DNA of 64,000 bases from Candidatus Spyradenecus sp. (GCA_045535075.1 JAZSKX010000015.1:1-64000); one strand, 5' to 3'. Shown: positions 1,413-63,999, counted from the first letter of the stretch. Numbers and translations are program-made. Notes: generated from the sequence alone by a model not told the origin.

Positions 1413-1886
1413 ATGATGGCAGCTTCGTCGGAAAACCTCGCCTACGGCTACAACTCGCGGAGTGAACTCGTTTCTGCGACGCTCGGGAACGATAATTATT
1501 CCTATGCTTTCGACGCCATCGGCAACCGCGAAACTTCTTCCGAAGCGGGAACGCCGTTGACTTACGCGGCAAACAATCTGAATCAATATACGGAAATTTG
1601 CTCGGCGGAGCCGATTCAACAGACGGCAACGCCGTCGGCTCAGCTCTCAGCTCTTCAGCTTTTGTATGACGCCGACGGGAACGCGACTATGATTCAAACT
1701 TCCACGGGAACGTGGACAATCTCCTACAACGCGGAAAACCGTCCGATTCGCTTTGAAAACGCGGGAATGCAAACCGTCGTGGAATGTGGCTACGATTCGC
1801 AGGGGCGACGGTTTGAGAAGAAAGTAACGGTCGCGGGAACGACGACGCTGCACCACCGCTACATTTATCGCGGGTATTTTTGGTAG
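1413..1886 (+). pseudogene. Orphan/truncated RHS (YD-repeat) fragment
   Basis: YGYNSRSEL...YAFDAIGNR...YDADGN...YNAENR...YDSQGRR...RYIYRGY. It stops before the core motif, against the convergent gene. Confidence 0.8.
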
Positions 1887-1897
1887 CAGTTTTTGAT

Positions 1898-2878
1898 TTA
1901 AGGAGATTGGGCGTAGGAGTGTTGTGTTGCGATGCCGGCGGTGAGGGCTCGGGGGTTGTTGCGTGTAGAGCTACAGAGTTCCCGTAGGATAATGCGTCCG
2001 ACTTCTGTTTCGAAAACCGAGGAAATGACAAAGCGCGGAGCATTTTTTTCGGCAAGAAGCCAAGTGCGCAGCCGCGGAAAGTTTCCGATAAGAAGCGGCT
2101 TTACGATGGCGACGACCAACGTTCCCGTAGGCATTTCCCAAGGTTCGCGTAAAGATTCGTCGAGGGCGATTTTTTTTGCATCAAGCGGCGGGAGCGCGTA
2201 AACGGCGGCGTCGTTTTCCGGGCTTGCTACGAGCGGTTGTTCGATAAATTCGAGTTGCGGGAACGCGTTGAGCGAAGCCAATGCCGTGAGGGCGGCGCGA
2301 TGATTCCACGCTCCGTTGGCGTCTAATCGGATTTTTGTTTCCGGGGAATTTGTTTTTGCGAGGGCTAGAAGTTTTTCGGCGAAGCGAATTTCTTCGTCGA
2401 GTGCGCAGAGTCCGATTTTAATTTTGAACGTCCGGTATCCTTTTTCGCGGGAACGAAGAATTTGCTCAAAAACGGCTTCCGGTTCGGCGGCGGAATCTCG
2501 CAAAATCAATTTGCAGACGCGTGAGGCGGATGGTTCCGATGACATGATTGCCTTCGGATTTTCCCAAAGAAAATGCGCGGCAGAGAGCGCGTGGCAGGTG
2601 CAAGGAAGATCGCTTATGTGTTTCGTGATTTCGGGAATGGTTTCGACGGGAAAGGGCTTTTCGGCGATTTCGGAGAGTGCTTTTCCCGCTTCGTCGAGCG
2701 TCTCGCATCCGAAGCCGCTCCAAGGCGCGATTTCAGTTTTCACCGGAGGTGTGCGTGCATTTTCGAGCGAAACGAGGATTCCTTCACGCGTTTCGGCGAT
2801 TCCGCGGGATGTTTTGACGGGAACGCGGAATCGGCGGGAGTAGCGGGTGTAAGAAAGCTTGCAGAAGGTTTGCGTCAT
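1898..2878 (-). CDS. menC: o-succinylbenzoate synthase-like enolase-superfamily protein
   Basis: KIKIG, RLDANGAW, FIEQP, LDESL, VKP and SVFET motifs. Confidence 0.7.
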   Translation of the reverse strand: MTQTFCKLSYTRYSRRFRVPVKTSRGIAETREGILVSLENARTPPVKTEIAPWSGFGCETLDEAGKALSEIAEKPFPVETIPEITKHISDLPCTCHALSAAHFLWENPKAIMSSEPSASRVCKLILRDSAAEPEAVFEQILRSREKGYRTFKIKIGLCALDEEIRFAEKLLALAKTNSPETKIRLDANGAWNHRAALTALASLNAFPQLEFIEQPLVASPENDAAVYALPPLDAKKIALDESLREPWEMPTGTLVVAIVKPLLIGNFPRLRTWLLAEKNAPRFVISSVFETEVGRIILRELCSSTRNNPRALTAGIATQHSYAQSP

Positions 2879-2950
2879 TTCGCGGGAAAATCGGGCGTTT
2901 TTTGTGATTCCATTTTAGCGGGAAAATCTGTTTCATAAAACCATTAACTT

Positions 2951-3949
2951 ATGAGAACTCCAACTCCGTCCGTTTATGTTCGCGGCATGGGCGTTTATAC
3001 GCCTGAGCGTCGCCTGACTAATGCCGATTTGACGCGCCTTGTTGATACTTCCGACGAATGGATTCGCACGCGTACGGGAATCATCGAGCGCCGTCTTGCC
3101 GATGCGGACGAGAGCGCTTCGGACATGGCGGCAAAAGCGGGAGAGAAAGCGATTGCCGATGCCGGAATCGCCAAAGAAGAAATTGATTTGATTATCGTGG
3201 CGACGGCGACGCCGGATCATGCGTTTCCGTCGACGGCTTGCCGCACGCAGGCGAAACTCGGATTAAAAGACATTCCCGCATTTGATATGTCGGCGGCGTG
3301 TTCAGGTTTCATCTACATGATGCAGATTGCAAATCACATGTTGCGCGCCGGTGATTATCGCAACGTACTGATTATTTCGACAGAAAAGCTTTCTTCGATC
3401 GTTAATTGGGAAGATCGCAATACTTGCGTGCTTTTCGGTGATGCGGCGGCGGCATTCGTTTTGACGAAATGCAACGAACCGTATGTCGGAATTCTCGGGA
3501 ATATTCTCGGTGCGGACGGATCGAGCGGAGATTTGTTAAACCTTCCGGCCGGCGGGAGCGCGTGTCCGGCAAGTTACGAAACGGTTCGCAACGGCGATCA
3601 TTATCTGCATATGGCAGGGCAGGAAGTTTTCAAGGTCGCCGTGCGTACGATGTCGGATTGTTGCAAGCGCTTGCTCGAAAAGTGCAATGTAACGGCGGAC
3701 GAAATTAAGTGCGTTATTCCCCATCAGGCAAACCTGCGCATCATCGATGCCGTGGCGCGTCAAGTCGGTATCCCGATTGAAAAATTCTGTGTGAACTTGC
3801 AGAACTACGGGAACACGTCTTCGGCGACAATCCCGAATTGTATGAAGGAAGCTTACGATGCCGGGCGGTTTAAAGCCGGTGATTTGGTACTCTTGACGGC
3901 ATTCGGCGGCGGATTTACTTGGGGCGCAACGCTCATCCGTTGGAAATAA
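2951..3949 (+). CDS. fabH: 3-oxoacyl-ACP synthase III
   Basis: DTSDEWIRTRTGI, AACSGF, HQANLRII, YGNTSSA, GGGFTWG. Confidence 0.97.
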   Translation: MRTPTPSVYVRGMGVYTPERRLTNADLTRLVDTSDEWIRTRTGIIERRLADADESASDMAAKAGEKAIADAGIAKEEIDLIIVATATPDHAFPSTACRTQAKLGLKDIPAFDMSAACSGFIYMMQIANHMLRAGDYRNVLIISTEKLSSIVNWEDRNTCVLFGDAAAAFVLTKCNEPYVGILGNILGADGSSGDLLNLPAGGSACPASYETVRNGDHYLHMAGQEVFKVAVRTMSDCCKRLLEKCNVTADEIKCVIPHQANLRIIDAVARQVGIPIEKFCVNLQNYGNTSSATIPNCMKEAYDAGRFKAGDLVLLTAFGGGFTWGATLIRWK

Positions 3950-6712: not shown

Positions 6713-8455
6713 ATGGGCAGTAATGCTACAAAAACCATAATTAACTGCGGGACGACGCAGGTTTCCGCTTCCGTTTTTTCGGCGGATGCGGGAACGCTGG
6801 TGCTGGAGAAGCTCGTCGTCGAAAATCTCGTTTATAATTACACGGAGAAAGATGAGTGGCCGGTTGCGGCAACGAATGCGCTCCGCAATATTTTTTCGAC
6901 GATGAAGCCGAAAGGCGAGATCGTCGTTATTGCTCCCGGCCAGCTTTTGTTGACGCGCAATGTCCGTGTTCCGCAGGTTGAAGAATCGAAACGCGACGGT
7001 GTTATCGCCTTTGAAGCTGCCAATAATTTCCCGTTCCCGCTGGAAGAACTCGTTTGGGGAAGCCAGGTAATTGCATCGGACGGCGTTGAAGAAAGCGTTG
7101 TTATCTTCGCGTTGAAGAAAACGGAGATTGTGCGCTTCACGAATTTGCTTATCAAGGAAGCCAAGCTTGTTCCCGACACCATTCAGCCGGCGACTAATCT
7201 TGATGTTCAGGCTTATCGCTATGCGACACTGGGTGAGAGCGGAGAAGATCCGGTGCTTATCGTGAATGTCGGAGCGCACACGACGAATCTTACCTTTGTT
7301 ACACCGAACGGATTTGACATCAACAATATCGGCTTGGGCGGGAACTACGTTACCCAAAAACTCGCCGAGGCTACGGGGATTCCTTTCCAGGCGGCAGAAC
7401 AAAAGAAAATTGCGTATTTTACGGAATCGGCGCGTTTTGCTCACGACGATCCCGTTCCCGCGACGATTCTTGCCGCCGGCGATTCGTTTGTGCGCCGCTT
7501 GAGTCAGGACATCACGCGACGTCTCATAGCGTTTAAGCGCGCGAACGGCGGCGTAGGTCCTAAGAAAATCTTTATTTCCGGGCGCGGCTCGCTCTTGCCG
7601 GGCATGGCAAAGAAGCTTTCGGATTTGCAGCGTGTCGATGTTGAAGTGCTTGACGCGACATCGCTTGTGCGCTGTGCCCCCGGCGTTGATTCCGACATGG
7701 TGTACAATGAGCGCTTTGAATTGCAGGAAGTTATCGGCGAAGCCTCTTCGCTTGTAATGCCGGATGTAAAAAGCGTTAATCTTCTTCCGCCGGAAATTGC
7801 CAAAGAACTGGATTTTAAGAAGAAAATGCCGTTCCTTGCTCTTGCCGGACTCTTCCTTGCCGTTGCTCCGTGGCCGGTTTGGATGCATTATTCCGAGGTC
7901 GGCACCGCGCTTGATACGGTTAAAAAATCTCAGGTGGAAAACATCAAAAAGCTTGAGGAGCGTGAGAGCGTGCTGAAGGATTTGGACGAACAATGCAAAA
8001 AGCTCAGATTCTACGCCGAAGAATTTGCGTCCGTGCTGGACAGACGTTTTCGTTGGAATGATTTCATGGCGGACGGACAGGCGTGTTTGGGACGTTTGCA
8101 GACGCGCACGGCGAAAGATGAAGACGGCGAAACGATCTTTTCTTCGGATCGTCATATTTGGCTGGATTCGCTTTCCGTGCGTCGCTCGTTGAAACCGGCG
8201 GCGGAAGACCTTCCCGCGAAAATCGTTTGTGACGTTGAAATCAAGTTTGCCATGCTGATTCCGGAAGTCGATGCCGATACTCCGGAACATAACGCCGGCG
8301 TGTTTGAAGCGCGTCGGAAATTGATTCTCGAATCGTTGAAATCTGCGGAGTTTGTTGACCAAAACGAAAAAATCACCGACAAACCGGACTTCTCCAAGCC
8401 GAATTTGCCGACGCTGACGGTTACGCTTCGCCTCAAATCCGATAAAGGACTTTAA
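6713..8455 (+). CDS. PilM(-PilN)-like actin-fold pilus assembly protein (Amuc_1101-like)
   Basis: INCGTT, FEAANNFPFPLEE, VNVGAHTTNL, SGRGSLLPG, then VNLLP plus a TM helix and a coiled coil (PilN-like). Confidence 0.85.
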   Translation: MGSNATKTIINCGTTQVSASVFSADAGTLVLEKLVVENLVYNYTEKDEWPVAATNALRNIFSTMKPKGEIVVIAPGQLLLTRNVRVPQVEESKRDGVIAFEAANNFPFPLEELVWGSQVIASDGVEESVVIFALKKTEIVRFTNLLIKEAKLVPDTIQPATNLDVQAYRYATLGESGEDPVLIVNVGAHTTNLTFVTPNGFDINNIGLGGNYVTQKLAEATGIPFQAAEQKKIAYFTESARFAHDDPVPATILAAGDSFVRRLSQDITRRLIAFKRANGGVGPKKIFISGRGSLLPGMAKKLSDLQRVDVEVLDATSLVRCAPGVDSDMVYNERFELQEVIGEASSLVMPDVKSVNLLPPEIAKELDFKKKMPFLALAGLFLAVAPWPVWMHYSEVGTALDTVKKSQVENIKKLEERESVLKDLDEQCKKLRFYAEEFASVLDRRFRWNDFMADGQACLGRLQTRTAKDEDGETIFSSDRHIWLDSLSVRRSLKPAAEDLPAKIVCDVEIKFAMLIPEVDADTPEHNAGVFEARRKLILESLKSAEFVDQNEKITDKPDFSKPNLPTLTVTLRLKSDKGL

Positions 8456-8458
8456 GCC

Positions 8459-9565
8459 ATGAAAAAGAATTTACCTATCATTTTGATCTTGGCTCTTTGC
8501 GGGATCGCGTTTGTCGGCGGCGTTGCCGTGACGGTTTCTTCAATTCTCGACAACGGTAAAAAAGAAGTAACCATCGAAAAAAACAAAAAAACGATTGATA
8601 AATTGGTGAAGCGAAAGACGCTTGCTCTTTCCGAAGAAAACATCGAGCTCGGGAAGTCCACGCTTGAAGCGCTGAAGGCGACGGTAAAAGTCCGAATCGG
8701 AACGCTTTTGCAACCCAAGCGTCTCGAAACGTTTTTCAAGGGAGATGCGACGCAGTTTATGTCCATCCTGACGGAGCGTGCCCGTGACTGGTCGCGTATG
8801 TGCGAAGACCAGAGTGTTGAGGTCGCTCCTGCGGTTCGCGGATTTGGGTTCTCCCGTTATTTGGTTAATAATGAAACTGCTCCCGCAGCCATGTTGGAAA
8901 AGATGGATTTGGAAGCGGCGATTACCGGCGAACTTATCAAAGCGCTTGTGGAAGCACGTGCAGATAATGAGAAAGAATTGCGCACGGCAAATGTGCTTGC
9001 AGCGTCGGACTCGACGTATCTTAAGTTGGTTGCGGTCGCACGTGAGGCCATTGAGCTTGCTCCGGCGCAACGTCGTTCGCTTCAGCGCGACGAAATCGTC
9101 GTCGATCCCATCGCCGATGCCGGAGATACGGGACTCGCAAGACTTTCGGATTCTGCGTCACGGGAATTGAAATACGAATCTATGCGTCGGGAAAATGCGG
9201 TAGACGCGATCGCGTTCCGCATCAGTTTTATCGGCGACACGGGTGTACTTCGTAAATTTATCCGACATCTCGAAACGTACCCGATTTATGTGCGCGACAT
9301 TGAAGCTTCGCGTGCGACTCCGGATATGCTTCCGGAAAAGAACGTCCCGGCTGCGGGAACGTCGCCTGCTCCCGTTGTGAACAATATGTTCGACCTTTTC
9401 GGCGCGGGACCGACGGTTACCGCTACGGAACAGGCAGCTCCGCGCGTTCCCGCGCGCCGTGTAATTGTTGAGAATGTCCCGGAATTGTTTACCGTTACGT
9501 TGGAATACATTTCTCCGAAAATGACGAAAATGAAAAAGCAGGAAGAAGAACAAAAATCCGAATAG
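8459..9565 (+). CDS. PilO-like / Amuc_1100-like pilus-system protein
   Basis: N-terminal TM helix, coiled coil, FGFSRY, FRISFIGDTGVLRKFI; lies after the PilM-like gene. Confidence 0.6.
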   Translation: MKKNLPIILILALCGIAFVGGVAVTVSSILDNGKKEVTIEKNKKTIDKLVKRKTLALSEENIELGKSTLEALKATVKVRIGTLLQPKRLETFFKGDATQFMSILTERARDWSRMCEDQSVEVAPAVRGFGFSRYLVNNETAPAAMLEKMDLEAAITGELIKALVEARADNEKELRTANVLAASDSTYLKLVAVAREAIELAPAQRRSLQRDEIVVDPIADAGDTGLARLSDSASRELKYESMRRENAVDAIAFRISFIGDTGVLRKFIRHLETYPIYVRDIEASRATPDMLPEKNVPAAGTSPAPVVNNMFDLFGAGPTVTATEQAAPRVPARRVIVENVPELFTVTLEYISPKMTKMKKQEEEQKSE

Positions 9566-9577
9566 AAAGTTAAAAAC

Positions 9578-10588
9578 ATGAAACATTACGATAAAATTGT
9601 TTTTATTTTGGGTTTGATCGCTTGCCTTGCCGGAGTCGGTGTTTATTTCGGAGTAAAACCGGAAAATAAGGCGGAGCGGATGCCGAATCCGAAAGGTGAG
9701 GCGTTTGCCGAATGGAAAGATGACAAGACGTTTGCAAGTGCTCCCGTCCAATGGGAATCTCCGGTCCTCGATTTGGAAACCGGGTGGAATTATGACTTGT
9801 TTTCGACTCCGGAGACGACATGGTTGTCCGGCGAAAAAAAGTATATCGCCAAAGAATTGCCCGTTCCGCCTGAGGAGCCGTTCGGCTTAACGCTTGTTTC
9901 CGTTGAGAATCCGCTTTCTCGCTTGCGTGTCGCAACCTGTTCCTCGGATGTGCCGCCGCGCAGGATTAAAAATCCGGACGGGAAGGGATCGTCATTTAAC
10001 ACTTTCGTGAAGTTCGCAGATCCGAAAGGAGGAGAAGCCACCGTCGATTTTCGTAAAATTCCCGGAGTTAAAATGTCCAAGGAAGAAATTGACGGCCGAA
10101 CAATTATTTCGTTGACGCCGCGTCGTCCCGCAGAAATTGCCGGACAGAATGTTGCGCTGAAAGATTTTAAAATTGTTCGAGGCGAAAGCGAAAGCGGCGA
10201 CGGAACGTTTTACACGAAATACATGGCGACATTCGTCGACCATGACGACAAGGACAAGACATTTCGCGCTCTTGAGGAGTTTGTCCGTGATAGTTCCCGC
10301 GTGGAAGCCATACTTCGTGACGAGTTTTCTTCCCGCGAGTGGCGTTACCGAGAAACGCTCGTTCCCGGGGCGGAAAAGCCTGAAATTGAGATAATGACGC
10401 GTGAGTCTTCCGTGGAACCGTGGACTGCGCTCGGGAATGAACCGTCGTTCCAGGTGGGAAATGCAACTTATTTTGTCAAAATAGTTGACATTTCCGCTCA
10501 ACAGGCAACAATAACCAAACAATCGGAGTCTAACGGCAAATCAAAGCGCCCCAAGGTTCGCCAGGTTGTTTTAGACCTCGTAAGATAA
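9578..10588 (+). CDS. Membrane-anchored pilus-system protein (Amuc_1099-like)
   Basis: MKHYDKIV plus TM helix, YDLFSTP; lies between the PilO-like gene and the secretin. Confidence 0.5.
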   Translation: MKHYDKIVFILGLIACLAGVGVYFGVKPENKAERMPNPKGEAFAEWKDDKTFASAPVQWESPVLDLETGWNYDLFSTPETTWLSGEKKYIAKELPVPPEEPFGLTLVSVENPLSRLRVATCSSDVPPRRIKNPDGKGSSFNTFVKFADPKGGEATVDFRKIPGVKMSKEEIDGRTIISLTPRRPAEIAGQNVALKDFKIVRGESESGDGTFYTKYMATFVDHDDKDKTFRALEEFVRDSSRVEAILRDEFSSREWRYRETLVPGAEKPEIEIMTRESSVEPWTALGNEPSFQVGNATYFVKIVDISAQQATITKQSESNGKSKRPKVRQVVLDLVR

Positions 10589-10653
10589 TTTAACCCAATA
10601 TTTTCACCCAGACCCCAGCTCTGAAATAACCACTTAACTCGAATTGGCCCCGC

Positions 10654-13608
10654 ATGAAAAACCAGTTGCGCATCCAGAAAATCATTTCCTCAGCTTTCAT
10701 TACGACTGCCCTCGCAGGCGCGGTCGTCGCGTCTCCGAGCGCGTTTGCGGAAGGTGAGGACAACGATCAACTCAAAGCCAAGCTTTATCTTGAAGCGGAA
10801 AGCGCTGCCTCAGAGCAGAAACTCGATGTTGCCGTTGAAAAATATCGTGCCTTCCTGAAGCTTGATCCCAACAACGAAGAAGCCAAGGAACGTCTTGCCG
10901 AAGTGGAACTCAAACTCCGCGACAGCGTTTCCGAAGCAAGCGCGGGAACGAGCGGCGCTCCGAAAAACGAATTTGAACGTATTATTCAGCAACGTAACGC
11001 GATTTATCGCGAAGCGGACGGTGCGATTGAAGAAGCTCGCTTCTTGGCTCCCACGGATCCGGAACGCGCGCTTCGCCTCTTGGGCGAAATCCAAAGCGCT
11101 CTTCCGAATACGCCGGCATCGCGCCCGTATTTCGACAGAATTACGCTTGTTCGCCAGGAAGCGCAGGTGGCTCTCACGAATCTTGACCCGGATACGATTG
11201 CCGAACAAATGACCGTCGCCGAACGTGAAGCAATTCGTGAAGGAACGCTTGCCGCACGGCGTTCGCTTTCCCGTGCACAGGAAGAACGTTCCCGCCATCT
11301 GCTTCAGGAAGCGCTTAAGTCGTTGGATGAAGCGAAGCTGCTTCTTCCGAATGTTTCCTCAACGACGGAAATCGCGAAAGAAATTGATGAAGAGCGTGCG
11401 CTCGTTTATGCCGGATACTTCTTTGATATGGTTGAACGCCGCTCTGCGGTTGAAGCTGCTTCTTACCTGAAGATGGTTCAGGACTTGATCGGTTCGGAGC
11501 ATAAGATCGCCAAGCAACTCAATGCTTTTTATCAGGAATGGCGCAATACCGCCGATGCTCAGAATCCGGAAACTTTGAATCCCGGCGCGATTCGCTCACA
11601 GAAAGAATGCCAGGAAGCGCTTCTTCGCGGGAAGGCTCAATATCGCTATGGTGATTATCTGAGTGCGCTTGAAAGCTATCAGAAGGCTCTGCTTCACATG
11701 CCGGACAACGCAGAAGCCAAAGCGATGCAGATTCGTATCCGCAAAATTCTTGCAAATTCCGGAAGCTATAACCATGAGTTGACGCGCGAAACGATGTTCG
11801 CGGACGTGAACGAAAAATGGAAACTCGCGATGCCGTTTACCGCGGTTGCGGCAGTTGATGAATCGGAAGAAAAAACGAATCCGGTTGAAGCGAAAATGTC
11901 GCGCATCAATATTCCGGTTACATTGCGCGATGCTCCCTTGCAACGTGCAATTGATACGATTGCTGAACTTTCCGTTATTAACGACCCGGTCGGGCGCGGG
12001 ATTGATATTGTTTTGATTGACCCGGAAAACAAAAACCCGCTTGTCAATCTTCAGATGAAGAGCCAGCCGATGGACAAGGTGCTGAAGATGATGCTTAGCA
12101 CGGTCGGCTATCGCTATGACGTAAACAAGGACGGAATCGTTGAGGTTACGCCGAATATCGGTTCTGCCGGACTCGATCAGGAAGAATTCACGGTTTCTCC
12201 GAAGGTGGTTGCCCGCATGGCAGGGAAGAAAAATGCGGCAAGCGGCGGCGGAAGCGTTTTCGGTTCCTCCGGAGAAGAAGTTTCTGAAGAAAACGGAGAA
12301 GAGCTTGGAATTAAAAACTTCTTGGCACGCGCAGGCGTGAGTTGGGAAGGAGATCGCTCCCTCGTTTATGATGCGACGTCCAACTTGCTTATCGTCACTC
12401 AAGATCGCAAAGGAATGGACCGTATTCGCAACATTCTCCGTAGCTTGAGCACCGCGGAAACGAAGCAGGTTAATATCGAAGCGAAGTTTATCGAAGTCAA
12501 TAGCACCGTTTTGAACCAAGTTGTTACGAACTGGGCTCTTACGCGCGGTGAAGGCAATGAAATGTTCACGCGTGCAACGACGAATAATCGCACGGTTGCG
12601 GGAGCGCATGCTACGATTTCCGAAGATTCTAAAACGCTTATTTATACGCCTCCGACGGAAGAATATACCGATGAAGACGGTATCTTCCATCCGGGTAAAG
12701 ATGCATCGGAAAAGGAATTTGCGCAGAAACCGCCGCAGGTAACACGTCAGCCGAATTACGGTATTGACGCGCTCCCGACCTTTACCGGTGTTATCGGGAC
12801 TGTCGGGAATTATGATCTCCGCCTTATCTTGAACGCGCTCAGCGCTCGTGACGGAACGGATTTGATGGCTGCTCCGAGTTTGACGGTCCAATCCGAAATG
12901 GAAGCAACAATCAAAATCGTTCAGTTGCTCCGTTGGCCGCAGTCCTATGACGACATGGAAATTTCCGTCAGCGGGAACAATAACAACAACGACGATAACA
13001 ATAATAACGGTGGCTACGGGAACGCGTCCGTCGGTATTACTCCGGGAACGCCGCAGTTTGACGAAGAGGCAACCGAAGTCGGTATCCAAATGCGCGTTCT
13101 CCCGCGCGTAAACAACACCGAAAAATCCATTACGCTTGAACTTTCTCCGGAAATTAAAGAATTCGAAGGCTTTATCGAATACGGAGGAACGGCGGTTGCA
13201 ATCGCCGGCGGAATCGTGGTTACGACTCCGGCAGGCTTCTTCCAGCCAGTCTTTAATCTTCGCCAAGTTTCTACGACGGTTGAAGTTTACGACGGCGGCA
13301 CGATCGTTATCGGTGGTTTGACGCGTGAAGAAATTCGTACGGTCAATGACAAAGTGCCGGTTCTTGGCGACCTTCCGCTCATCGGCTCGGCTTTCCGTTC
13401 GACAGGAAAATCCATCACGAAGAAAAATCTTCTCATCTTTGTCACCGCGAACCTCATGGCGCGTGGCGGAGGAACCGAAGACGGTCTCTTCAAGGGCGTT
13501 CAAACGGGAGCGACGTATTCGAATCCGAGTTTGTTTATTTCTTCCGGACCGATTTATCGCGACTATGATGTTGCGCCGACGGCGGATGAAAATTCTGGAC
13601 TTGAATAA
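10654..13608 (+). CDS. TPR-containing secretin (PilQ/GspD family, Amuc_1098-like)
   Basis: QVNIEAKFIEV, APSLTV, EVGIQMRVLPRV, DGGTIVIGGL, DKVPVLGDLPLIGSAFRS, NLLIFVTA. Confidence 0.93.
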   Translation: MKNQLRIQKIISSAFITTALAGAVVASPSAFAEGEDNDQLKAKLYLEAESAASEQKLDVAVEKYRAFLKLDPNNEEAKERLAEVELKLRDSVSEASAGTSGAPKNEFERIIQQRNAIYREADGAIEEARFLAPTDPERALRLLGEIQSALPNTPASRPYFDRITLVRQEAQVALTNLDPDTIAEQMTVAEREAIREGTLAARRSLSRAQEERSRHLLQEALKSLDEAKLLLPNVSSTTEIAKEIDEERALVYAGYFFDMVERRSAVEAASYLKMVQDLIGSEHKIAKQLNAFYQEWRNTADAQNPETLNPGAIRSQKECQEALLRGKAQYRYGDYLSALESYQKALLHMPDNAEAKAMQIRIRKILANSGSYNHELTRETMFADVNEKWKLAMPFTAVAAVDESEEKTNPVEAKMSRINIPVTLRDAPLQRAIDTIAELSVINDPVGRGIDIVLIDPENKNPLVNLQMKSQPMDKVLKMMLSTVGYRYDVNKDGIVEVTPNIGSAGLDQEEFTVSPKVVARMAGKKNAASGGGSVFGSSGEEVSEENGEELGIKNFLARAGVSWEGDRSLVYDATSNLLIVTQDRKGMDRIRNILRSLSTAETKQVNIEAKFIEVNSTVLNQVVTNWALTRGEGNEMFTRATTNNRTVAGAHATISEDSKTLIYTPPTEEYTDEDGIFHPGKDASEKEFAQKPPQVTRQPNYGIDALPTFTGVIGTVGNYDLRLILNALSARDGTDLMAAPSLTVQSEMEATIKIVQLLRWPQSYDDMEISVSGNNNNNDDNNNNGGYGNASVGITPGTPQFDEEATEVGIQMRVLPRVNNTEKSITLELSPEIKEFEGFIEYGGTAVAIAGGIVVTTPAGFFQPVFNLRQVSTTVEVYDGGTIVIGGLTREEIRTVNDKVPVLGDLPLIGSAFRSTGKSITKKNLLIFVTANLMARGGGTEDGLFKGVQTGATYSNPSLFISSGPIYRDYDVAPTADENSGLE

Positions 13609-22707: not shown

Positions 22708-22751
22708 AAAACAACGTTCCCGCGACCTTTGCCGCGGGAACGTTGTTTTTT
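22708..22751. terminator. Bidirectional terminator built from an inverted pair of the CGGGAACG motif
   Basis: Perfect 17-bp stem aaaacaacgttcccgcg/cgcgggaacgttgtttt between convergent tsaB and infC. Confidence 0.9.
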
Positions 22752-37600: not shown

Positions 37601-37779
37601 CGGCTAAGAAAACCGTAGCGAAGAAAGCTGCGGCTCCGGCGAAAAAGGCTGCTCCGGCAAAGAAGCCGGCGGCGAAAAAAGCGGTTGCCAAAGCCGCTCC
37701 CGCGAAGAAGGCGGTTGCAACGAAGGCTGCTCCGGCGAAAAAGCCCTGCGCGAAGCGTTGCGGCTGCAAGAAGAAATAG
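34627..37779 (+). CDS. ppdK: Pyruvate,phosphate dikinase with in-frame histone-H1-like C-terminal tail
   Basis: [42 protein letters not shown], then about 130 aa of K/A/P repeats. Confidence 0.96.
37387..37779 (+). repeat. Lys/Ala/Pro-rich repeats (KKAAPAKK), histone-H1-like; possible nested in-frame gene
   Basis: In-frame ATG at 37387: [19 protein letters not shown]...[13 protein letters not shown]. Confidence 0.75.
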
Positions 37780-37803: not shown

Positions 37804-37862
37804 AAAACGTTCCCGTGAAAATCGGCACTTGCCGCACGGGAACGCTTTTTTTGCAGAGATGA
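37804..37862 (+). terminator. Terminator built from an inverted motif pair
   Basis: cgttcccgtg...cacgggaacg followed by c and T7. Confidence 0.7.
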
Positions 37863-44631: not shown

Positions 44632-44669
44632 CGCGGGAACGCTGTTTTTACTTTGACGTTTTTGCAATT

Positions 44670-46520: not shown

Positions 46521-46522
46521 AT

Positions 46523-47257
46523 ATGAAAATACTCGCTGCACAAGAAATTTACAGTAAGTTGATCAATGAAGATTGCATCTTAACTCTGAAAGGGCAGATT
46601 CAATTTCATCTTGGAGATGTTGGTATTGTTGTCCGCCAGAAAGATGTCGTGGGAAATATTATTCAGGAGTGGCTTCAGGGTTGGATGGAAAAAAGCGGAA
46701 TTGCGTATACGCTCAATTCAAACTCTCAGATGCCTCCTGATTTTTTCTTAAATCCTAACGACAAAACTCGTTCTCTCTTGGAGGTCAAGGCATTTAATCG
46801 TGATTCTACGCCTGGTTTTGACATTGCGGATTTTAGAATGTACAGCGAAGAAATCATAGAAAAACCCTATATGTTGGATGCGGACTATCTTATTTTTGGC
46901 TATCGCATGAATCCTAATGGGGTGGTGACGATAAAGGATTTGTGGTTGAAGAAAGTTTGGCAGATAACTCGACGTATGGGGAATTGGCCACTAAATCTCC
47001 AAGTGAAGGCTAAAGTTGTTCATAAAATTCGCCCAGGAGTTTGGTATAGGACTCCGAATAAGTTTAAAATGTTTGAATCATTGGAAGATTTTATTTCTGC
47101 TGTGAATCATACAGTTTGGCAAAACCCTAAAACAAAAGAGTCTTCTGGGACTTGGCTGGTGAACTTTATAAAGGCGTATAAATCTTTTTACGGAAAAAAG
47201 CTTAGAATTCCTCGTTGGGAGGATATTGAAGATAAATATTTGGTCGGTAATTCCTGA
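46523..47257 (+). CDS. Type II restriction endonuclease, NgoBV/NlaIV family (probably GGNNCC)
   Basis: KDVVGNIIQEWL, QMPPDFFLN, LEVKAFNR, PGFDIADF, KIRPGVWY. Confidence 0.88.
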   Translation: MKILAAQEIYSKLINEDCILTLKGQIQFHLGDVGIVVRQKDVVGNIIQEWLQGWMEKSGIAYTLNSNSQMPPDFFLNPNDKTRSLLEVKAFNRDSTPGFDIADFRMYSEEIIEKPYMLDADYLIFGYRMNPNGVVTIKDLWLKKVWQITRRMGNWPLNLQVKAKVVHKIRPGVWYRTPNKFKMFESLEDFISAVNHTVWQNPKTKESSGTWLVNFIKAYKSFYGKKLRIPRWEDIEDKYLVGNS

Positions 47258-47282
47258 TTAGAAATTTCGTTATTTGTACTTT

Positions 47283-48977
47283 ATGAAAATTAGCAAAATC
47301 AAAGTTAAAAATTTTCGGTCAATACAAGATGCGGAAATAAGTGTTTCAAATTTAAATATTTTTGTTGGGCAAAATAATAGCGGGAAGACAAATTTATTTG
47401 AAGCCCTTGATTTCTTCTTTAATGGAGTCGGAAGAGGGGTTGATTTAATAGATTTAAAATATAAAAAGCATGATGAGTTAACGCTCTCTGTCGAAGTTGA
47501 ATTTAAAGGGGCTCAAGATGGACTTGCTAAAATGCAGAACGAGAAAAACAAGGCGACTCTTGAGAGAAAGATAGGTGGGAGTGATTGTGTTACACTAATT
47601 CGGCGTTCCGATGATCCCAAAAAACGTCAGATGATTGTTAATGGAGAGGAAGTGACTCCAGGTACCGGCTTTGATGCTGCTGTAAATGACTTTTTGCCCA
47701 AATTTGAGTATATAAATACGAAGCAGTACTACGATGCGGTTGCAAAATATTCAAAGACAACTCCGATGGGGATTATGCTTTCAGGAGTCTTATCTGCAAT
47801 CTTGGAGAATGACCCTCAGTACCAAAAGTTTCAGAAAACATTTCATGATCTTTTTGATGGGGAGGATTCAGGTATCAAAGCGAAGTTTGAACAAGTTGGC
47901 GTGGATGTAAAAGGGTATTTGGCAAAGCAGTTTCCGGATACAAAGAGAGTCCGATTCGAGGTACTCCCTCCTTTATTTGATGATTTGTTGAAAAATTTCA
48001 CAACGAGTGTTGATGACGGCGTTGAGACGTTTGCAGAAGATAAGGGAGATGGGATGCAGCGAGCGTTAATGCTCGCCATAATTCAAGTATACGCAGATTT
48101 TCGAAAACAGGGGGTAGATGCGGGAAAATCATTTTTATTTTTTATCGATGAGGCGGAACTTCACTTGCATCCTACAGCGCAAAGAAAATTGAAAGATGTT
48201 TTGGCGGAACTTTCTTGTAGCTCTGATCAGGTTTTTGTTAATACGCATTCGTCTGTTTTTGTTGCGGATGATTGTAGCGGACAAACAATTTTTAAGGTTG
48301 AGAAGTTGGAGGGGAGGACAGAGATAGAGATGATTGGCGACCAACAAAAGTTTGGCTTGGTGTTCGAGCTTCTTGGCGGGACTCCTGGTGATTTGCTGCT
48401 TCCACAAAATTTTTTGATTGTAGAAGGTGCTAGTGAAGTTGAATTACTAACGCGAGTCATTGGTCGGTTTTACTCGGACAAGCCTAAAATTCAGATTTTA
48501 GATGCACACGGTGATACAGGCCAGGTTGAGCGTTCCATTAACGCAATCGAGAAACTTTTCAATCCTTTGGATAAAACAATTTATGGAGACAAGTTGGTTG
48601 TTCTAATTGATTCTCCAAGCCCTGAGAGAGAAGCTGGTGTAAAACAGTTCAAAAAAGATCATAAGTCGCTAGTGAAAAGCGACCGCCTTTTTGTTTTGCC
48701 AAAGAGAGATGTTGAGCAGTGCTATCCTGATAGGTCTGATTCTATTTATGGGAGGTGGTTAAAAACACAGGGGGAAGTTGATAATATGAGCGGGAAACAA
48801 AAAAGGAATCTCGCCAAACACGTTGGGGGTAACATAACGCAGGAGGAATTTGAAACTGCATTAGGAGTCTGTTTTTGTGCACTGCAGAAATGTTGGAGAC
48901 TTTCGTTTTGCACAGACAATGGATCGGGTGAGCAGAGGAGCGCGTTCCCGCAATATGTAGCGGGAGAGGAGTCGTGA
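47283..48977 (+). CDS. OLD-like ATP-dependent nuclease (ABC/SMC ATPase plus TOPRIM)
   Basis: KNFRSI, GQNNSGKT, GDGMQR, FIDEAELHLHP, NTHS, LIVEGASE. Confidence 0.85.
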   Translation: MKISKIKVKNFRSIQDAEISVSNLNIFVGQNNSGKTNLFEALDFFFNGVGRGVDLIDLKYKKHDELTLSVEVEFKGAQDGLAKMQNEKNKATLERKIGGSDCVTLIRRSDDPKKRQMIVNGEEVTPGTGFDAAVNDFLPKFEYINTKQYYDAVAKYSKTTPMGIMLSGVLSAILENDPQYQKFQKTFHDLFDGEDSGIKAKFEQVGVDVKGYLAKQFPDTKRVRFEVLPPLFDDLLKNFTTSVDDGVETFAEDKGDGMQRALMLAIIQVYADFRKQGVDAGKSFLFFIDEAELHLHPTAQRKLKDVLAELSCSSDQVFVNTHSSVFVADDCSGQTIFKVEKLEGRTEIEMIGDQQKFGLVFELLGGTPGDLLLPQNFLIVEGASEVELLTRVIGRFYSDKPKIQILDAHGDTGQVERSINAIEKLFNPLDKTIYGDKLVVLIDSPSPEREAGVKQFKKDHKSLVKSDRLFVLPKRDVEQCYPDRSDSIYGRWLKTQGEVDNMSGKQKRNLAKHVGGNITQEEFETALGVCFCALQKCWRLSFCTDNGSGEQRSAFPQYVAGEES

Positions 48978-49001
48978 TACCAAGCCAGGAGCTAAAATAG
49001 T

Positions 49002-49685
49002 CTACTTAAATCGAATTTGAAGATTTAGTTTTAGGTGAAAATTTCCATTTTTGTCTTTTCTTATTTTCCCAAATTGGAGAGCAGGATCGTTCGGCGTTTC
49101 TAGCATTGTCGCTCTTGAAAGGTATTTATCAAATTGGGGAGAATGGGAAATTAGCGTTTCCTGCTGAAGATTAGATTTCCCGACGAGAGTGTAATCTTTC
49201 GTCATTTTATATAATCCGTTCCATGTTTGATTCGAAGTCAAGCCAAGTGCAATACAGGATAAGAATTGTGTGAGTTTGTATGTGTAAAAATTTTTTGTAT
49301 TAAAGGGAAGCCTGAGTGGATTTTTATCGTCTATCTTTTTAGCAAGTTCTTGAAAATCATTCGTTCCTGTAGTGAAAAATTCGAGAATTAGATCTCCAAG
49401 AATTTTGGCTAAAAAAGATTTAACGAGCATCAAGTTCGAATTGAATGTTTTGTTCTCGATATGAGAGAAAATGATTTTTGCGTCGAGAACCTGAATGTAT
49501 GGTATTCTGTCTTCAATGGAGATTGCATTTATTTCTTCGAGCTCTCTTTTTGAAAAATTTCTTCCAAGAACCTTGTAGGTAAAAGCCGTTTCCCGAGTGG
49601 CTTCGAAAAATATTTGACGACCCTTGCTTCGGAATTTGATTTTGATATTTGATTTTTCGTCGTTGGAATAGCTGTCGTGATTCAT
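49002..49685 (-). pseudogene. Degenerate/N-truncated HpaII-family restriction endonuclease
   Basis: NPL...FYTYKLTQFLSCIALGL...WNG...LETP...FGKI...KLNLQIRF resembles the R.HpaII C-terminal half; the N-terminal half is missing. Confidence 0.6.
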
Positions 49686-49931
49686 ACTGACAAGCATTCC
49701 GGATTTGCGTTCCCGTGTCCGGGATATTTTGCGGGAATCCAGCGATCTTTGACGGCGGCGGGAACGCAGGCTTGTTTTTTGTAAGGATTTTTTCGGGGAC
49801 TCATCGGAGGAAATTTTACCGACAGAGTATTCCGGGAAAGGCGTGAATTGTCCGGGGGATTTTTTCGTTTCTACGGGAACGGGAATAAAATCTCGCATGA
49901 GGTAGGATTTTTTGCCGAAAACATAGTGACG

Positions 49932-50520
49932 ATGGCTCACAACGACGGAGAAAATTTGATTCTTTACCGGACGGCGGGCGGTAGGGCGGAGGTCGCACTT
50001 TATGTCTGTGACGGGAACGTTTGGTTGACGCAACAACAGATGGTGAACTTTTGCCTCCTCGAAGCAAAATGTAGGGCAACACATTGCCAATCTCTTTGCT
50101 GAAGCGGAATTGGACGAAAATTCAGTTGTAAAGAAATTCTTTACAACTGCCGCTGACGGGAAGAAATACAATGTGTTGTACTACTCGTTGGAAGTTATTT
50201 TAGCGGTAGGATTTCGTGTGCGCGGCGTCCGCGGAACGCAGTTTAGACAGTGGGCGAATCGTCATTTGCGAAACTTTCTCGTTAAGGGGTTTGTTATTGA
50301 TTCCGGGCGTCTTAAAAATCCGGATGGGAGACCGGATTATTTTGACGAATTACTTGCGAGCATTCGCGATATTCGAGCCTCTGAAAAACGGTTTTATCAG
50401 AAATCCGGGATTTGTTTGCGCTTAGCAGTGATTACGAAAAAACAGACAAGTCGGCGCAGATGTTTTTTGCAGAAACGCAGAATGAGTTGCTTTTTGCCGT
50501 TACGGGAAAAACAGCGGGGA
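49932..50520 (+). pseudogene. RhuM-family DNA-binding protein, frameshifted twice and truncated
   Basis: ILYRT...VWLTQQQM / SVVKKFFTTAADGKKY...ILAVGFRV...GTQFRQWA...IRDIRASEKRFYQK / IRDLFALSSDY...AVTGKTA, spread over three frames. Confidence 0.85.
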
Positions 50521-50595
50521 AACGGGGCTGCGTGCTTGAAAGATTTTTATGGGAGAAAAGACAATTCGGAGGGTGACCTTCGCTCCTAATAAAGA

Positions 50596-51276
50596 ATGGA
50601 CGTCCAAGAACCTGTAAATTCTAAAACCTTAAATCAACTTTATAACGAGCTTTGGAGTGCATACGAAAAAGACGATCGGGAGTTGGTTATTCGCGCTATT
50701 GGTAAAATCGGCTGTGCACTTCCGGACATCCCGGGGCAGGCGTTAGACGTGACGCGTCAAATTTTCATGTCTCACGGGCAAGTAATGGTGGAGACGAATA
50801 TTTACTTGGTTTTTGGGGAAGAATTAAAGTGGAATGTTCAAGGATACCTGACTGCGATGGAGAGAGTCTTGCGGGAAGAAGATGAGACATTCTTTTCGAT
50901 CGAAGCTTTCGGGAAGTTGTTTGAAAATGCCGTAAAGTTTGAGGGGAAACAAAAACTTTACGAGCGGGAAGGCAAAACTCTAACCGTCGCCGGCTTGCTC
51001 TCTGTCGTGGAGTACGGGGTGCGGGCGTTTTATACGTTTGGTCCGGAAAAAGCGGCGGCGTATACGGAGGAAGTCGTTTCCGTGTTAAAAGAAATCCGTT
51101 CTTCGCTTCAAAACGAAAGCGGGGCTCAAAAACCTTTAAATCGTCAACTCCACGAAACGGTGGAATACTTTCGAAATCTCGTAAAACCGAACTTGGAAAA
51201 GGAAACGCATCGACGGGCGGAGGAGGGAATTTCGGCTTTGGTTGATTTAGCGATAGATTTCTTTTGTTGGCGATAG
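50596..51276 (+). CDS. Hypothetical protein
   Basis: 226-aa open ATG frame with no recognised motif. Confidence 0.6.
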   Translation: MDVQEPVNSKTLNQLYNELWSAYEKDDRELVIRAIGKIGCALPDIPGQALDVTRQIFMSHGQVMVETNIYLVFGEELKWNVQGYLTAMERVLREEDETFFSIEAFGKLFENAVKFEGKQKLYEREGKTLTVAGLLSVVEYGVRAFYTFGPEKAAAYTEEVVSVLKEIRSSLQNESGAQKPLNRQLHETVEYFRNLVKPNLEKETHRRAEEGISALVDLAIDFFCWR

Positions 51277-51277
51277 C

Positions 51278-51991
51278 CTAATAGATTATTAAGTCGCAAC
51301 AAATGTTTCTGTGGAATTCAAAGTTCAGAGCTTCCACGTCGTCGTTGTTTGCAGATTCAAGATTTTTAGCACCCTCTTCCGCGTAATTACAGATAGTTTC
51401 ACGGAGCGAGCGATTGTGATTCCATAGGTAGTTCATGATACGCGAAAGCTCGGCAAGAAGAAATTTGGCATGTTGCAGACAAAGATTGTAGGCAGGGGTA
51501 AGTTCTCCGCGTGCACGGATGAAGTAGTTTATGTCATTCATGCTTTTTACAAAGCTATCTATCATTGTAAAGATACGTTCCCGCGCTTTACTGCTTCTTT
51601 TTTGCCTGATTTCGGAAATGACCAGTTCGCGTTCCCTCAAGTGCGGAAATGCTTTGGCAAAAGCATTGATTCGTTTCCGGAGTTCTCTTTCCGGCATTTG
51701 AGTTGAGAGTTTTTTCCATCGGGAAATATCGTTTTTCTCTGCATTAAGAAGTGCAAGAGCGACGAGATGTTTACAGAATTTACCGGATTGTCCGACGGGG
51801 CAAGAGCAAGAGTAGGAGATATTTCCTGTTCTGCTACGAGATATGTTGGCGGTGTAGTCTTTTCTTCCGGAAACAACGGCAGAAAGCTTCGTGTGGGAGC
51901 GTCTTTTTATATCAACATTGTTCAGATAGCACTCTCCTCTCTTGAAAAATCGTTCTTCCGTAAGATTTTTAATTTCGCGTAGTGTCAGCAT
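51278..51991 (-). CDS. SWIM zinc-finger protein
   Basis: FKRGECY, VSGRKDY, SCSCP...FCKHLVAL. Confidence 0.8.
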   Translation of the reverse strand: MLTLREIKNLTEERFFKRGECYLNNVDIKRRSHTKLSAVVSGRKDYTANISRSRTGNISYSCSCPVGQSGKFCKHLVALALLNAEKNDISRWKKLSTQMPERELRKRINAFAKAFPHLRERELVISEIRQKRSSKARERIFTMIDSFVKSMNDINYFIRARGELTPAYNLCLQHAKFLLAELSRIMNYLWNHNRSLRETICNYAEEGAKNLESANNDDVEALNFEFHRNICCDLIIY

Positions 51992-52096
51992 CGTGTAGAT
52001 CTTTCGAATTATACAAGGGATATTTAAATTAAGTCTTTTGCAATACTAAATAAGTTTGAGAAGACGTAGCGGATTTATGTTCCCGCGGGAACGCGA

Positions 52097-56165: not shown

Positions 56166-56202
56166 GTTCCCGCAGAGCAATACTTTGCGGGAACATTTTT
56201 TT
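56166..56202 (+). terminator. Terminator built from an inverted motif pair
   Basis: gttcccgcagag...ctttgcgggaac followed by a and T7. Confidence 0.85.
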
Positions 56203-62498: not shown

Positions 62499-62554
62499 AA
62501 ACGGCTTTTCCGAATATCCGCTTCAGCAAAAGCAGGTGCGCTAAATCAAAGAAG

Positions 62555-62594
62555 TTGCGGGAGAAACCTTATTCGATTTCTCCCGCAGTTTTTT
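62555..62594. terminator. Terminator between convergent genes
   Basis: tgcgggagaaa/tttctcccgca stem followed by Ts. Confidence 0.75.
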
Positions 62595-62619
62595 GGGATG
62601 TAGGTTATGTCAGATGTCT

Positions 62620-63999
62620 TTATTCACCTCTGCTTTTGAGCATCGGATCGGCTAAGATTTTTGTTAGCTTGGGCGAGGGTATATTCCAGAAGCGCTGAAT
62701 CGGCTTGCGTCCGTCTTTGTCCTTCGCGTAGACACTTGCTCCCGCGTTGAGCAGGGCGATAACGCAGGCTTCGTCTTCTTTCTCTGCCGCAAGATGCAAC
62801 GGCGTATCATCATGCTTGTTTTGCACGTTCACGGGAACGCCGCGCTTGACGATTTCGGGAATCATATCCGCTCTCCCCGCCAAAACCGCGCGATGCAAAA
62901 TCGAGTTTCCGAGAGCATCTTCGGGAACGTCCGTAAGACTGTTAATTCGCGGGAACATCTTTTTGAGCAAGTCAAAATCGTTGAGTTCGCAGACGTGAAA
63001 CAGAGCCAATTTTTTATCTGCGCCGTAGTTCAGGAGCAATTTTTCGAACTCAGGCTTGTCCCACAAATACGCGCAAACGAGGGCAGGGTGGTTTGTCTCG
63101 TTCGCACGCGCATTCACGTCGACTCCGTAATCCAGAAGGGCTTTTGCCGCTTCGACGAAGATTTCCGGTTTTTTAAATTCTCCGATACAGTGCTTTTTAT
63201 ACCAGTTCGGATCGACATCCCGCGGGTGCGGCGGATTGGCAATGAGTTCTTCCACGGGAACATCTTTGAAGAAGTCTGAAGCAAAAAAGCGTTCGAGCAA
63301 AGCCTGTTCTTCCTTCTGGCGGCCGATGCGCGCTTCCAGCTCTTCTATTGCTTTGTCGAAATCGTTTATTTCGGGGTTGAATTCCGGATTTTTTACCCAT
63401 TCGTCCAATTTCGCTTTGTATTCGACAAGGACCGGACGAATTTTTTCGATAAGCGCTTTTTTTGTCGCAGCTTGCGCCTTTATGCGAGCGGCCCAGGTTT
63501 CTTTCCATTGCTCGGCGAGTTCTCCTTCCAAAGGAGCTTCTTCGTAAAGTTCAAAGATTCTGGCGTTCAATTCGCGCTTAGGAGCATTCCATCCTTCGAT
63601 GCGTGAGTTGATTTCCGCGACTAGTTTTTCGCCGTTTGATGCAAGCTCAATCGCGCCGAGATAACGCCCGATTTGAGAGCCTTGCCGTTCGCCTTCCGCG
63701 CGTGCGGATTCCGTTTCCGCTTCCGTGAGATTTTCCCGCACAACAATCGAGCCGCCGCCGGCTCCGAGGCTCAGGAAACCGTCGTCGCCCGAAATTCCGA
63801 TGCCCATGCGCGCGGAAGACCAGTTGACTTTGCGTGTGTTTTTTTCTTTAGCGACAATCAAGTCCGAAACCGCCTCAATGCCTTGCTTTGCTGCTTCTGC
63901 GACTTCTCTGTCTTTAAGATAGAGGGTGAAGAGATATTCCTGCGGGACCGGTAAATCCAGCGTTTGAATCTGCTTTTTGAAGATTTCGTCGCTACGTCC
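62620..63999 (-). CDS. Ankyrin-repeat protein with coiled coil, 5'-partial
   Basis: The frame stays open to the window end; GNSILHRAV, DTPLHLAA, LLNAGASVYAKDKDGRKP. Confidence 0.85.
   Translation of the reverse strand, partial: GRSDEIFKKQIQTLDLPVPQEYLFTLYLKDREVAEAAKQGIEAVSDLIVAKEKNTRKVNWSSARMGIGISGDDGFLSLGAGGGSIVVRENLTEAETESARAEGERQGSQIGRYLGAIELASNGEKLVAEINSRIEGWNAPKRELNARIFELYEEAPLEGELAEQWKETWAARIKAQAATKKALIEKIRPVLVEYKAKLDEWVKNPEFNPEINDFDKAIEELEARIGRQKEEQALLERFFASDFFKDVPVEELIANPPHPRDVDPNWYKKHCIGEFKKPEIFVEAAKALLDYGVDVNARANETNHPALVCAYLWDKPEFEKLLLNYGADKKLALFHVCELNDFDLLKKMFPRINSLTDVPEDALGNSILHRAVLAGRADMIPEIVKRGVPVNVQNKHDDTPLHLAAEKEDEACVIALLNAGASVYAKDKDGRKPIQRFWNIPSPKLTKILADPMLKSRGE

Follow-up and report, generated by a model that had tools for sequence, protein, structure and literature searches.

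The first 64 kb of contig C12 in an assembly of Candidatus Spyradenecus sp. (GCA_045535075.1, JAZSKX010000015.1:1-64000; hereafter the window) carries the asymmetric word CGGGAAC, or its complement GTTCCCG, many times over, and the same word runs through the whole assembly (G000; 18 contigs, 1,949,087 bp). The word is the 8-mer CGGGAACG, and it occurs approximately every 380 bases in the genome of this ruminant-gut Verrucomicrobiota genus. This pattern appears to be known so far only from the uptake sequences of Neisseria and Haemophilus relatives, and we hold it to be an evenly balanced proposition that (G/A)CGGGAACG serves this one genus for self-recognition in the manner of a DNA uptake sequence. 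The computed statistical anatomy of the word matches that of an uptake sequence on every computable feature. An earlier note on this DNA had described the motif from the window and proposed a role in natural transformation; its observation was confirmed in full and is stronger than first stated.

Within the window, 183 cores were counted, 99 on the plus strand and 84 on the minus strand, in line with an earlier tally of about 170-180 copies and with the claim that both orientations are frequent. Dinucleotide-preserving shuffles of the window (n = 100) held a mean of 12.8 cores (standard deviation 3.5, maximum 23), and 0 of the 100 reached 183. The usual extension to RCGGGAACG was found as described: 129 of the 183 cores extend to CGGGAACG, and 120 of these 129 extend further to RCGGGAACG. 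The first core begins at 1484 and the last occupies 63255-63261, so that the extent originally given for the field matches:

1484..63261, no strand: core field CGGGAAC/GTTCCCG, 183 copies, approximately 3.1 per kb outside the accessory island described below.

Across G000, the 7-mer occurs 6,528 times, the 8-mer 5,159 times (one per 378 bp) and the 9-mer GCGGGAACG 3,244 times, and for each k between 6 and 12 the commonest k-mer either forms part of the motif or extends it. The core is divided 3,168 to 3,359 between the two strands, and its density is uniform, at 3.1-3.9 per kb, over all ten contigs longer than 25 kb. Flank preferences genome-wide are G (62%) or A (24%) at position -1, G (79%) at +7 and C (46%) at +8, and the oriented logo reads [C/T][G/A]CGGGAACG[C]. 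Information is confined to positions -3 to +8, which indicates a bare word and not a conserved piece of a longer repeat element.

To place the word relative to genes, a crude set of 1,581 open reading frames (ORFs) covering 91% of G000 was used. Most copies of the 8-mer are coding (4,456, or approximately 86%), with 697 intergenic and 6 on ORF boundaries; intergenic density exceeds that of coding DNA (4.0 versus 2.5 per kb). At least one core is present in 1,356 of the 1,581 ORFs, and the RecQ gene in the window, with 8 cores in 2.1 kb, is near the average. All six reading frames are occupied, and the peptides match those that had been named when the word was first said to be read in several frames:

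xCG-GGA-ACG: 1,449 copies.
xxC-GTT-CCC-G: 1,161 copies.
xxC-GGG-AAC-G: 765 copies.
CGG-GAA-CG: 418 copies.
CGT-TCC-CG: 360 copies.
xCG-TTC-CCG: 303 copies.

Two kinds of shuffle, 20 of each, were then applied to the ORFs, one exchanging synonymous codons within a gene (protein and codon usage kept) and one permuting codon order. Relative to synonymous-codon shuffles the 8-mer was in excess by 8.3-9.7x and the 9-mer by 10.5-12.6x; relative to codon-order shuffles the figures were 25-29x and 55-58x, respectively. The synonymous shuffle is the conservative one, because the word itself shapes the codon usage of each gene. Enrichment, which the earlier note had allowed might vanish under a model aware of codons and amino acids, persists at 8-12x (synonymous) and 25-58x (codon order).

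The comparison of perfect with imperfect copies, which had been proposed as a check, gave a steep drop from the perfect word to its one-mismatch neighbors. Perfect GCGGGAACGC is present in 1,614 copies, and the 21 variants that differ from it at one of the seven core positions sum to 828, against an expectation of 437 from an order-3 model that is itself inflated by the word. These variants are near expectation at core positions 1-5 and approximately 3x above it at positions 6-7. With regard to replication, the strand ratio of the word in 20-kb bins tracks GC skew weakly; when the skew was computed with the word masked, the G-rich strand lay on the leading strand in 54.8% of copies, and for intergenic copies the leading-to-lagging ratio was 344:315 (52%). 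A sense preference inside genes was observed as well (63% in co-oriented and 54% in head-on genes). The bias of 54.8% is far from a Chi- or KOPS-like polarity.

Gaps between adjacent cores are near exponential in distribution (coefficient of variation 1.09). The order GTTCCCG then CGGGAAC is in excess at start-to-start distances of 16-20 (peak 19, n = 58) and 7, the latter being perfect palindromic doublets, of which 21 exist genome-wide; at distances of up to 25, 208 pairs have this order versus 47 with the reverse. Pairs of the form GTTCCCG-N(0-18)-CGGGAAC number 207, and 139 of them are intergenic, 99 followed by at least four consecutive T and 94 preceded by at least four consecutive A. 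By spacer, 49 intergenic pairs are convergent and 8 divergent, whereas the background is 300 and 293 of 1,563 spacers. A hairpin-plus-T-run finder placed the word in the stem of 183 of 283 (65%) crude intergenic terminator-like sites. Inverted pairs in terminators, as well as a palindromic doublet at 52079-52092, had been claimed from the window, and both are present:

22716..22741, no strand: terminator-like hairpin consisting of an A-run, CGTTCCCGC, a loop, GCGGGAACG and a T-run, 15 nt from the end of the IF-3 gene.
37809..37843, plus strand: inverted pair preceded by an A-run and followed by a T-run, lying 30 nt beyond the end of the pyruvate phosphate dikinase gene.
56166..56194, no strand: inverted pair followed by TTTTTTT, in the convergent spacer between a PEP-CTERM protein gene and a small minus-strand ORF.
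52079..52092, no strand: perfect palindromic doublet GTTCCCGCGGGAAC, with the right end of the island (52084/52085) at its center.

For comparison, one preprint places approximately half of all copies of the DNA uptake sequence (DUS) of Neisseriaceae and the uptake signal sequence (USS) of Pasteurellaceae, and more than 90% of their inverted-repeat copies, in predicted terminators (10.1101/2025.10.24.684340). Passages of a second paper give the share of terminators with such a motif as up to 22% in Pasteurellaceae and up to 37% in Neisseriaceae, and name only these two families (PMC13020248).

Depletion in horizontally acquired islands had also been put forward as a check, and restriction, defense and prophage islands are word-poor. 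G000 contains 16 gaps longer than 2.5 kb, against approximately 1 expected from an exponential distribution, and most are low in GC. Those annotated with Pfam hold restriction-modification, defense and Mu-like prophage genes and ORFs of no known family:

Reverse-transcriptase and T5orf172 genes adjoining an MmeI-type enzyme.
HamA and a helicase.
Type I specificity subunit and an Abi protein.
Double helicase of 1,608 amino acids (aa).
Several clusters of ORFs without known family.
C8:20790-31056 (L186): probable Mu-like prophage, free of the word, with Mu Gam, an ATPase with an AAA_22 domain, DUF3850 and a C5 methylase.

The window itself includes one such stretch:

44616..52084, no strand: accessory island, GC 0.41, 7 cores in 7.5 kb (Pfam; counts).

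Its genes encode two endonucleases, of the NgoBV and HpaII types, a C5 DNA methylase and an AAA_15/AAA_21 ATPase, and two further ORFs belong to no known family. In public metagenomes of ruminant gut and feces, contigs match the flanks of the island at approximately 98-99% identity, and in runs X3, X4 and X10, from three studies, contigs span from 44615 to 52084/52085 with different DNA between. The presence of other DNA at this site in three conspecific strains marks the island as a strain-variable replacement hotspot. Its left junction is the 3' end of the adenylosuccinate synthetase gene, and its right junction, 52084/52085, falls exactly between the two halves of the palindromic doublet. 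A further word-free stretch of 3.2 kb (C5:245196-248374) lies mostly inside a long ORF (C5:244035-247769) that adjoins the gene for ribosomal protein L10; as this stretch is outside any island, some long-resident DNA also lacks the word. In the same public data, 18 runs from 11 studies contained at least half of the words sampled from the query stretch; the labels that name a host give sheep or goat, and the others give only gut or feces metagenome. Among the 40 within-species differences listed, 0 fall in a core, versus approximately 0.9 expected, with 308 further differences outside this listing; this sample is too small to be informative.

The word is a property of the genus. GCGGGAACG is enriched in 19 of 19 genus genomes, with 340-5,581 copies versus 34-88 for the reversed control, and sampled genus loci spanning 52-65% GC carry the same word. 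Enrichment was seen in 0 of 102 genomes of four sister genera of the same family, in 0 of 12 genomes from other families of the order, which were at control level, and in 0 of 299 genomes (147 genera) from the rest of the phylum, where the maximum was 326 copies in 3.8 Mb versus 98 for the control. Fifteen of the genus genomes are of high density and four of low density, namely G001, G002 and G013 (approximately 740 copies each, about a quarter of the high density) and G014 (340, about a tenth). A variant word, or dialect, was considered for these four and rejected, as samples of 46-80 kb show the same word at lower density and no new one. Similarly, CGGGTACG was rejected as a one-base dialect in G031, because 42 of its 48 core copies lie in one 20-kb stretch (L119) and 54 of 61 GGGTAC copies lie on one strand.

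As to taxonomy, the assignment to Verrucomicrobiota agrees with a single protein, the pyruvate phosphate dikinase, whose nearest named relatives come from several orders of this phylum, including Akkermansia, Luteolibacter, Chthoniobacterales and Opitutales, at 63-72% identity. A search for related loci with the dikinase recovered nothing from the genus itself, and the relatives that it did recover were at most 84% identical. The universal 16S primer site had no match in G000, and the assembly thus seems to lack rRNA.

A different word was found elsewhere in the phylum. The 9-mer GCCTAACGA/TCGTTAGGC is enriched in G425 (2.9 Mb; 1,803 copies of GCCTAACGA versus 70 for the control), one of 301 phylum genomes. 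G425 belongs to the same class and to another order, and the other sampled genome of its family (G179) showed no enrichment. The phenomenon therefore recurs in the class with unrelated or only loosely related words. Locally, TGTTAGAA is over-represented in a Verrucomicrobia metagenome-assembled locus (16 times in the 22.7 kb of L046), and a 10-12-mer around CAACGCCCTGGG occurs 14 times in 60 kb of G033. Among 33 viral contigs that hold the word hairpin, none has a host-like density, the maximum being 0.93 cores per kb, a result that favors none of the readings below. One viral contig (L173; 19 kb, GC 0.48) has 14 cores versus 1 for the control (0.73 per kb), and may be a phage or prophage of the genus that has partly acquired the word.

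Comparison of orthologues demonstrated that the word turns over by point substitution, and a site-by-site analysis was made in one gene of the window:

34627..37776, plus strand: pyruvate phosphate dikinase gene, compared site by site, with 5 word sites in G000.

Identity of the dikinase protein to that of G000 is 93-94% in the low-density trio (G001, G002 and G013), 91% in G018 and G004, and 82-85% in the rest. The codon alignment of ten species holds 12 word sites. Seven of the 10 species retain site 1173 (GTTCCCG, Val-Pro-Ala), which a synonymous change has removed in the G002 clade; two sites were gained only in G000, one by a synonymous change and one by a change of Ser to Thr. Residues 905-1049 of the dikinase form a Lys-rich C-terminal tail with a sub-threshold match to the histone H1-like HC2 family (33 versus 40 bits), and genus relatives align with the protein almost from end to end, tail included.

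The comparison was extended to approximately 20 kb of aligned sequence, with G018 and G004 as outgroups. G000 has 51 sites in this alignment, G002 14, G013 11 and G001 13, and most of the trio sites are also in G000 (13 of 14 for G002, 7 of 11 for G013 and 10 of 13 for G001). Survival of the G000 sites in the trio was 14-25%, versus a background 7-mer rate of 22-23%; retention was 7 of 30 versus 13.9% in G018, and 4 of 19 versus 8.6% in G010. Nine sites are common to an outgroup and at least one ingroup genome, and G000 kept 7 of these, G002 2, G013 2 and G001 1. Sites found only in G000 and sites found only in G018 number 16 each; most are one or two substitutions from a core in the other species, and several of the changes leave the protein unchanged. 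These private sites, together with the retained ones, indicate that the word is continually made by point substitution and held in most lineages, and that the maintaining force has stopped or weakened in the trio and in G014. Altogether, these data reveal an ongoing directional process, and one clade and one further species that let the word decay.

Most of the machinery that an uptake system would use was found in the genome. The window encodes a type IV pilus-like operon, candidate DNA-uptake machinery by its Pfam matches:

6713..13605, plus strand: type IV pilus-like operon (Pfam).
6713-8452, plus strand: PilM (Pfam).
8459-9562 and 9578-10585, plus strand: two ORFs of the operon, no known family.
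10654-13605, plus strand: secretin, 984 aa (Pfam).

The operon is intact in 10 of 10 genus genomes fetched, the secretin match in G014 covering residues 107-974. Elsewhere in G000 are seven pilin-like genes, all candidates for the receptor (a cluster of four at C1:259100-262397 and three standalone at C2:45148-45810, C16:99151-99861 and C5:98972-99448), two PilB-like ATPases and a shorter PilT-like one, PilC, ComEC and DprA. The three T2SSE ATPases of G000 (C5:26641-30620) are joined by a fourth (approximately 440 bits) in each of G001, G002, G013, G014 and G018, which in G014 adjoins the pilin cluster. Downstream of the secretin in the window, at 13683-15380, a pair of paralogous ORFs stands in tandem, neither matched by Pfam. 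Identity between the second ORF and its G002-clade counterparts is 96-97%, compared with 75-91% for the neighboring genes.

If the word is a self-recognition signal, double-stranded DNA that bears it would be bound by a receptor on the cell surface, for which a minor pilin of the type IV pilus is the most plausible candidate; word-bearing fragments would be pulled through the secretin and moved inward by ComEC, and DprA and RecA would help their recombination. Preferred uptake of such fragments would mean that word-bearing alleles are over-transmitted. Point mutation and biased fixation could then build up the word throughout long-resident DNA, and inverted pairs could be co-opted as terminator stems. 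Binding of the word, preferential uptake and transformation are the steps that we infer. Somewhat more tentatively, the word could represent an independently evolved uptake specificity in Verrucomicrobiota, which would be the first outside Proteobacteria and the densest known (approximately 2% of the genome), with no recognizable ComEA.

To our knowledge, two families of Proteobacteria are the only ones in which DNA uptake is established to be sequence-specific, with the receptor known in one and only predicted in the other. The DUS of Neisseriaceae, 10-12 nt long and recognized by the minor pilin ComP, resembles the present word in being non-palindromic, hyper-abundant, equal between strands and read in every frame, in forming inverted pairs that act as intrinsic terminators, in being scarce in islands and prophages, in its clade-wide distribution, and in the presence of a type IV pilus, ComEC and DprA. 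Unlike the DUS, the word described here has a core of 7-8 nt, is approximately 3x denser and mostly coding, and is a single genus-wide word with no dialects seen, in another phylum and in genomes where ComEA was not found; uptake is here inferred. The USS of Pasteurellaceae shares with it a short core, many genic copies that shape peptides, accumulation by point mutation, a place in terminators and strand neutrality, but the present word has no AT-rich flanking segments, is denser, and again differs in phylum and in ComEA. For the USS (9-nt core, AT-rich flanks) the receptor is reported to be still only predicted (PMC12616744).

Several results weigh against a role in uptake. In G000, the ComEA domain (PF12836) matched only a Tex-like ORF of approximately 800 aa and DnaE; in 17 of 18 other genus genomes it matched only the Tex-like ORF (open frames of 357-901 aa, the shortest at a contig start), and G012 (82% complete) gave no PF12836 match. 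The same domain matches small ORFs in only 2 of 12 other families of the order. The proposed search for comEA, comEC, dprA and pilins was therefore successful for ComEC, DprA, the type IV pilus and the pilins, but not for ComEA in any of the 19 genomes. ComEC, DprA and the pilus genes are weak evidence, as they are also present in control genomes not known to be transformable. Furthermore, ComEC, DprA, the pilus operon, the pilin cluster, the ATPases and two standalone pilins are full-length and stop-free in the low-density genomes G001, G002, G013 and G014, the exceptions being one pilin of G014 with an in-frame TGA and one of G002 that is broken across contig ends. The loss of competence genes was accordingly rejected as the cause of decay: all hand-picked genes are present in the decayed lineages, so that the decay is not explained by loss of any known competence gene. 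Dialects, which had been expected in related genomes, were not seen: one word extends across the genus, and samples of 57-100 kb from the four sister genera contained no genome-wide word. We know of no described uptake sequence with more than about a third of this density, which is closer to that of HIP1. Approximately 86% of copies are coding, versus the roughly one half of DUS and USS copies that one preprint assigns to terminators (10.1101/2025.10.24.684340). Searches of the literature, judged from listings and abstracts, found no report of natural transformation or of an uptake sequence in the phylum, and a full-text search found no use of this word in a relevant sense, the single paper returned being, by its listing, on a microbial fuel cell. 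The self-recognition proposed in the earlier note is thus partly supported: it has the enrichment, the mismatch cliff, the lack of polarity, the islands, the terminators, the conservation in the genus and the presence of a type IV pilus, ComEC and DprA on its side, and against it the failure to find dialects or ComEA and the machinery kept by decayed lineages.

The alternative offered at the outset, a binding site for an abundant nucleoid or repair protein, stays the main rival. In this case the word would resemble the cyanobacterial HIP1 (GCGATCGC), as a site of a nucleoid or architectural protein, kept by selection for some function at the level of the chromosome, or as a product of sequence-specific biased repair or gene conversion, with no part in uptake, which we consider unlikely although deserving of serious attention. 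HIP1 is likewise an 8-mer, present at up to approximately one copy per gene and at sites conserved between genomes, and its function is unproven. The frequency of one per 300-380 bp and the enrichment of 25-58x are within the range of HIP1, reported as 15-300x with more than one copy per gene (PMC5861425). The predominance of coding copies, cross-species retention somewhat above background in G018 and G010, the failure to find ComEA across the genus and the retention of all tested competence genes in word-losing lineages also accord with such a role. However, HIP1 is a palindrome with a cognate methyltransferase. The word CGGGAACG differs from its reverse complement, the palindromic doublets are a minority, the spacing is random, and no conserved methyltransferase fits the word, the MmeI family being the one surveyed across the genus. 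No Vsr was found in G000. The terminator pairs and the island depletion form the classic signature of an uptake sequence, though they are compatible with a HIP1-like role.

A Chi-like signal, read by RecBCD, marking self DNA and selected for abundance through double-strand-break repair, is improbable. Chi sequences of RecBCD and AddAB are asymmetric 5-8-mers over-represented in core DNA, and G000 encodes RecC (a 199-bit family match in a 1,152-aa ORF) and a PD-(D/E)XK nuclease ORF of 1,107 aa, so that the genome should hold some Chi sequence; the present 8-mer has one G-rich strand with a slight leading-strand excess, and foreign DNA is poor in it. Chi shows a strong orientation along the direction of replication (approximately 75% in E. 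coli) and only few-fold enrichment, whereas the word is split 55:45, with almost no polarity among intergenic copies either, and is enriched 25-58x, an order of magnitude above known Chi sites. In addition, both of its orientations serve as paired terminator arms.

Restriction-modification or methylation might produce the word as a by-product, if the word or a near-variant were a methylation target and very-short-patch-like repair turned near-cognate sites into the word, and this is more doubtful still. Restriction-modification systems are many, with an MmeI-type enzyme, three type I HsdM, one D12-class and two C5 methylases in G000, and the word has a CpG at both ends. Restriction targets, however, are normally avoided and not enriched. 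The MmeI type is the only kind of enzyme found here that reads a contiguous asymmetric word, and it was rejected as the driver because its distribution is patchy and unrelated to word density: its genes are present in 10 of 19 genus genomes, including the low-density G001, and missing from six of high density. The other methylases that could be placed lie in or beside word-poor stretches, the restriction island of the window is strain-variable, Vsr was not found, and variants with T in place of C as the first core base number 8, just as many as expected (7.8).

The idea that the word is an artefact, whether of base composition, of codon usage, of repeated peptides or of a dispersed repeat element, is refuted, for although giant repeat genes inflate words locally (two 20-kb stretches of G000 have strand counts of 9:66 and 11:55, and the G031 word comes nearly all from one region), the excess survives both kinds of shuffle, the flanks are without information, copies occupy all frames and the spacers at uniform density, and the same word is found across loci that differ widely in GC. 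The 20-kb stretch with 55 versus 11 copies by strand holds the gene for a 4,268-aa autotransporter-like protein (C8:185333-198139, L114:5334-18140, minus strand) with an IgA1-protease (Peptidase_S6) domain and PATR repeats.

If the word is an uptake signal, it would constitute a third independent case, and self-recognition in transformation would be a recurrent evolutionary solution. Natural competence would be implied in a phylum for which reports of it were not found, and the word, placed on donor DNA, might suffice for transforming these gut bacteria, which are uncultured or hard to engineer. The drive would be off in one clade and one species that keep the pilus, ComEC and DprA, and the receptor could then be findable by comparative genomics. 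The 9-mer of G425, a soil lineage, is of the same class and shows the same kind of statistics; it is another word that shares only AACG, which chance may explain, in another order and at approximately a quarter of the density, and it would suggest that such systems arise repeatedly in the phylum. Should the word prove unrelated to uptake, it would stand beside HIP1 as an asymmetric counterpart, and its 16-fold variation in density among close relatives could reveal the function of such words.

One further word-poor stretch (C16:206561-208021, L194:62-1522) holds a 487-aa ORF with a weak match to an ADP-ribosyltransferase exoenzyme domain (33 bits).

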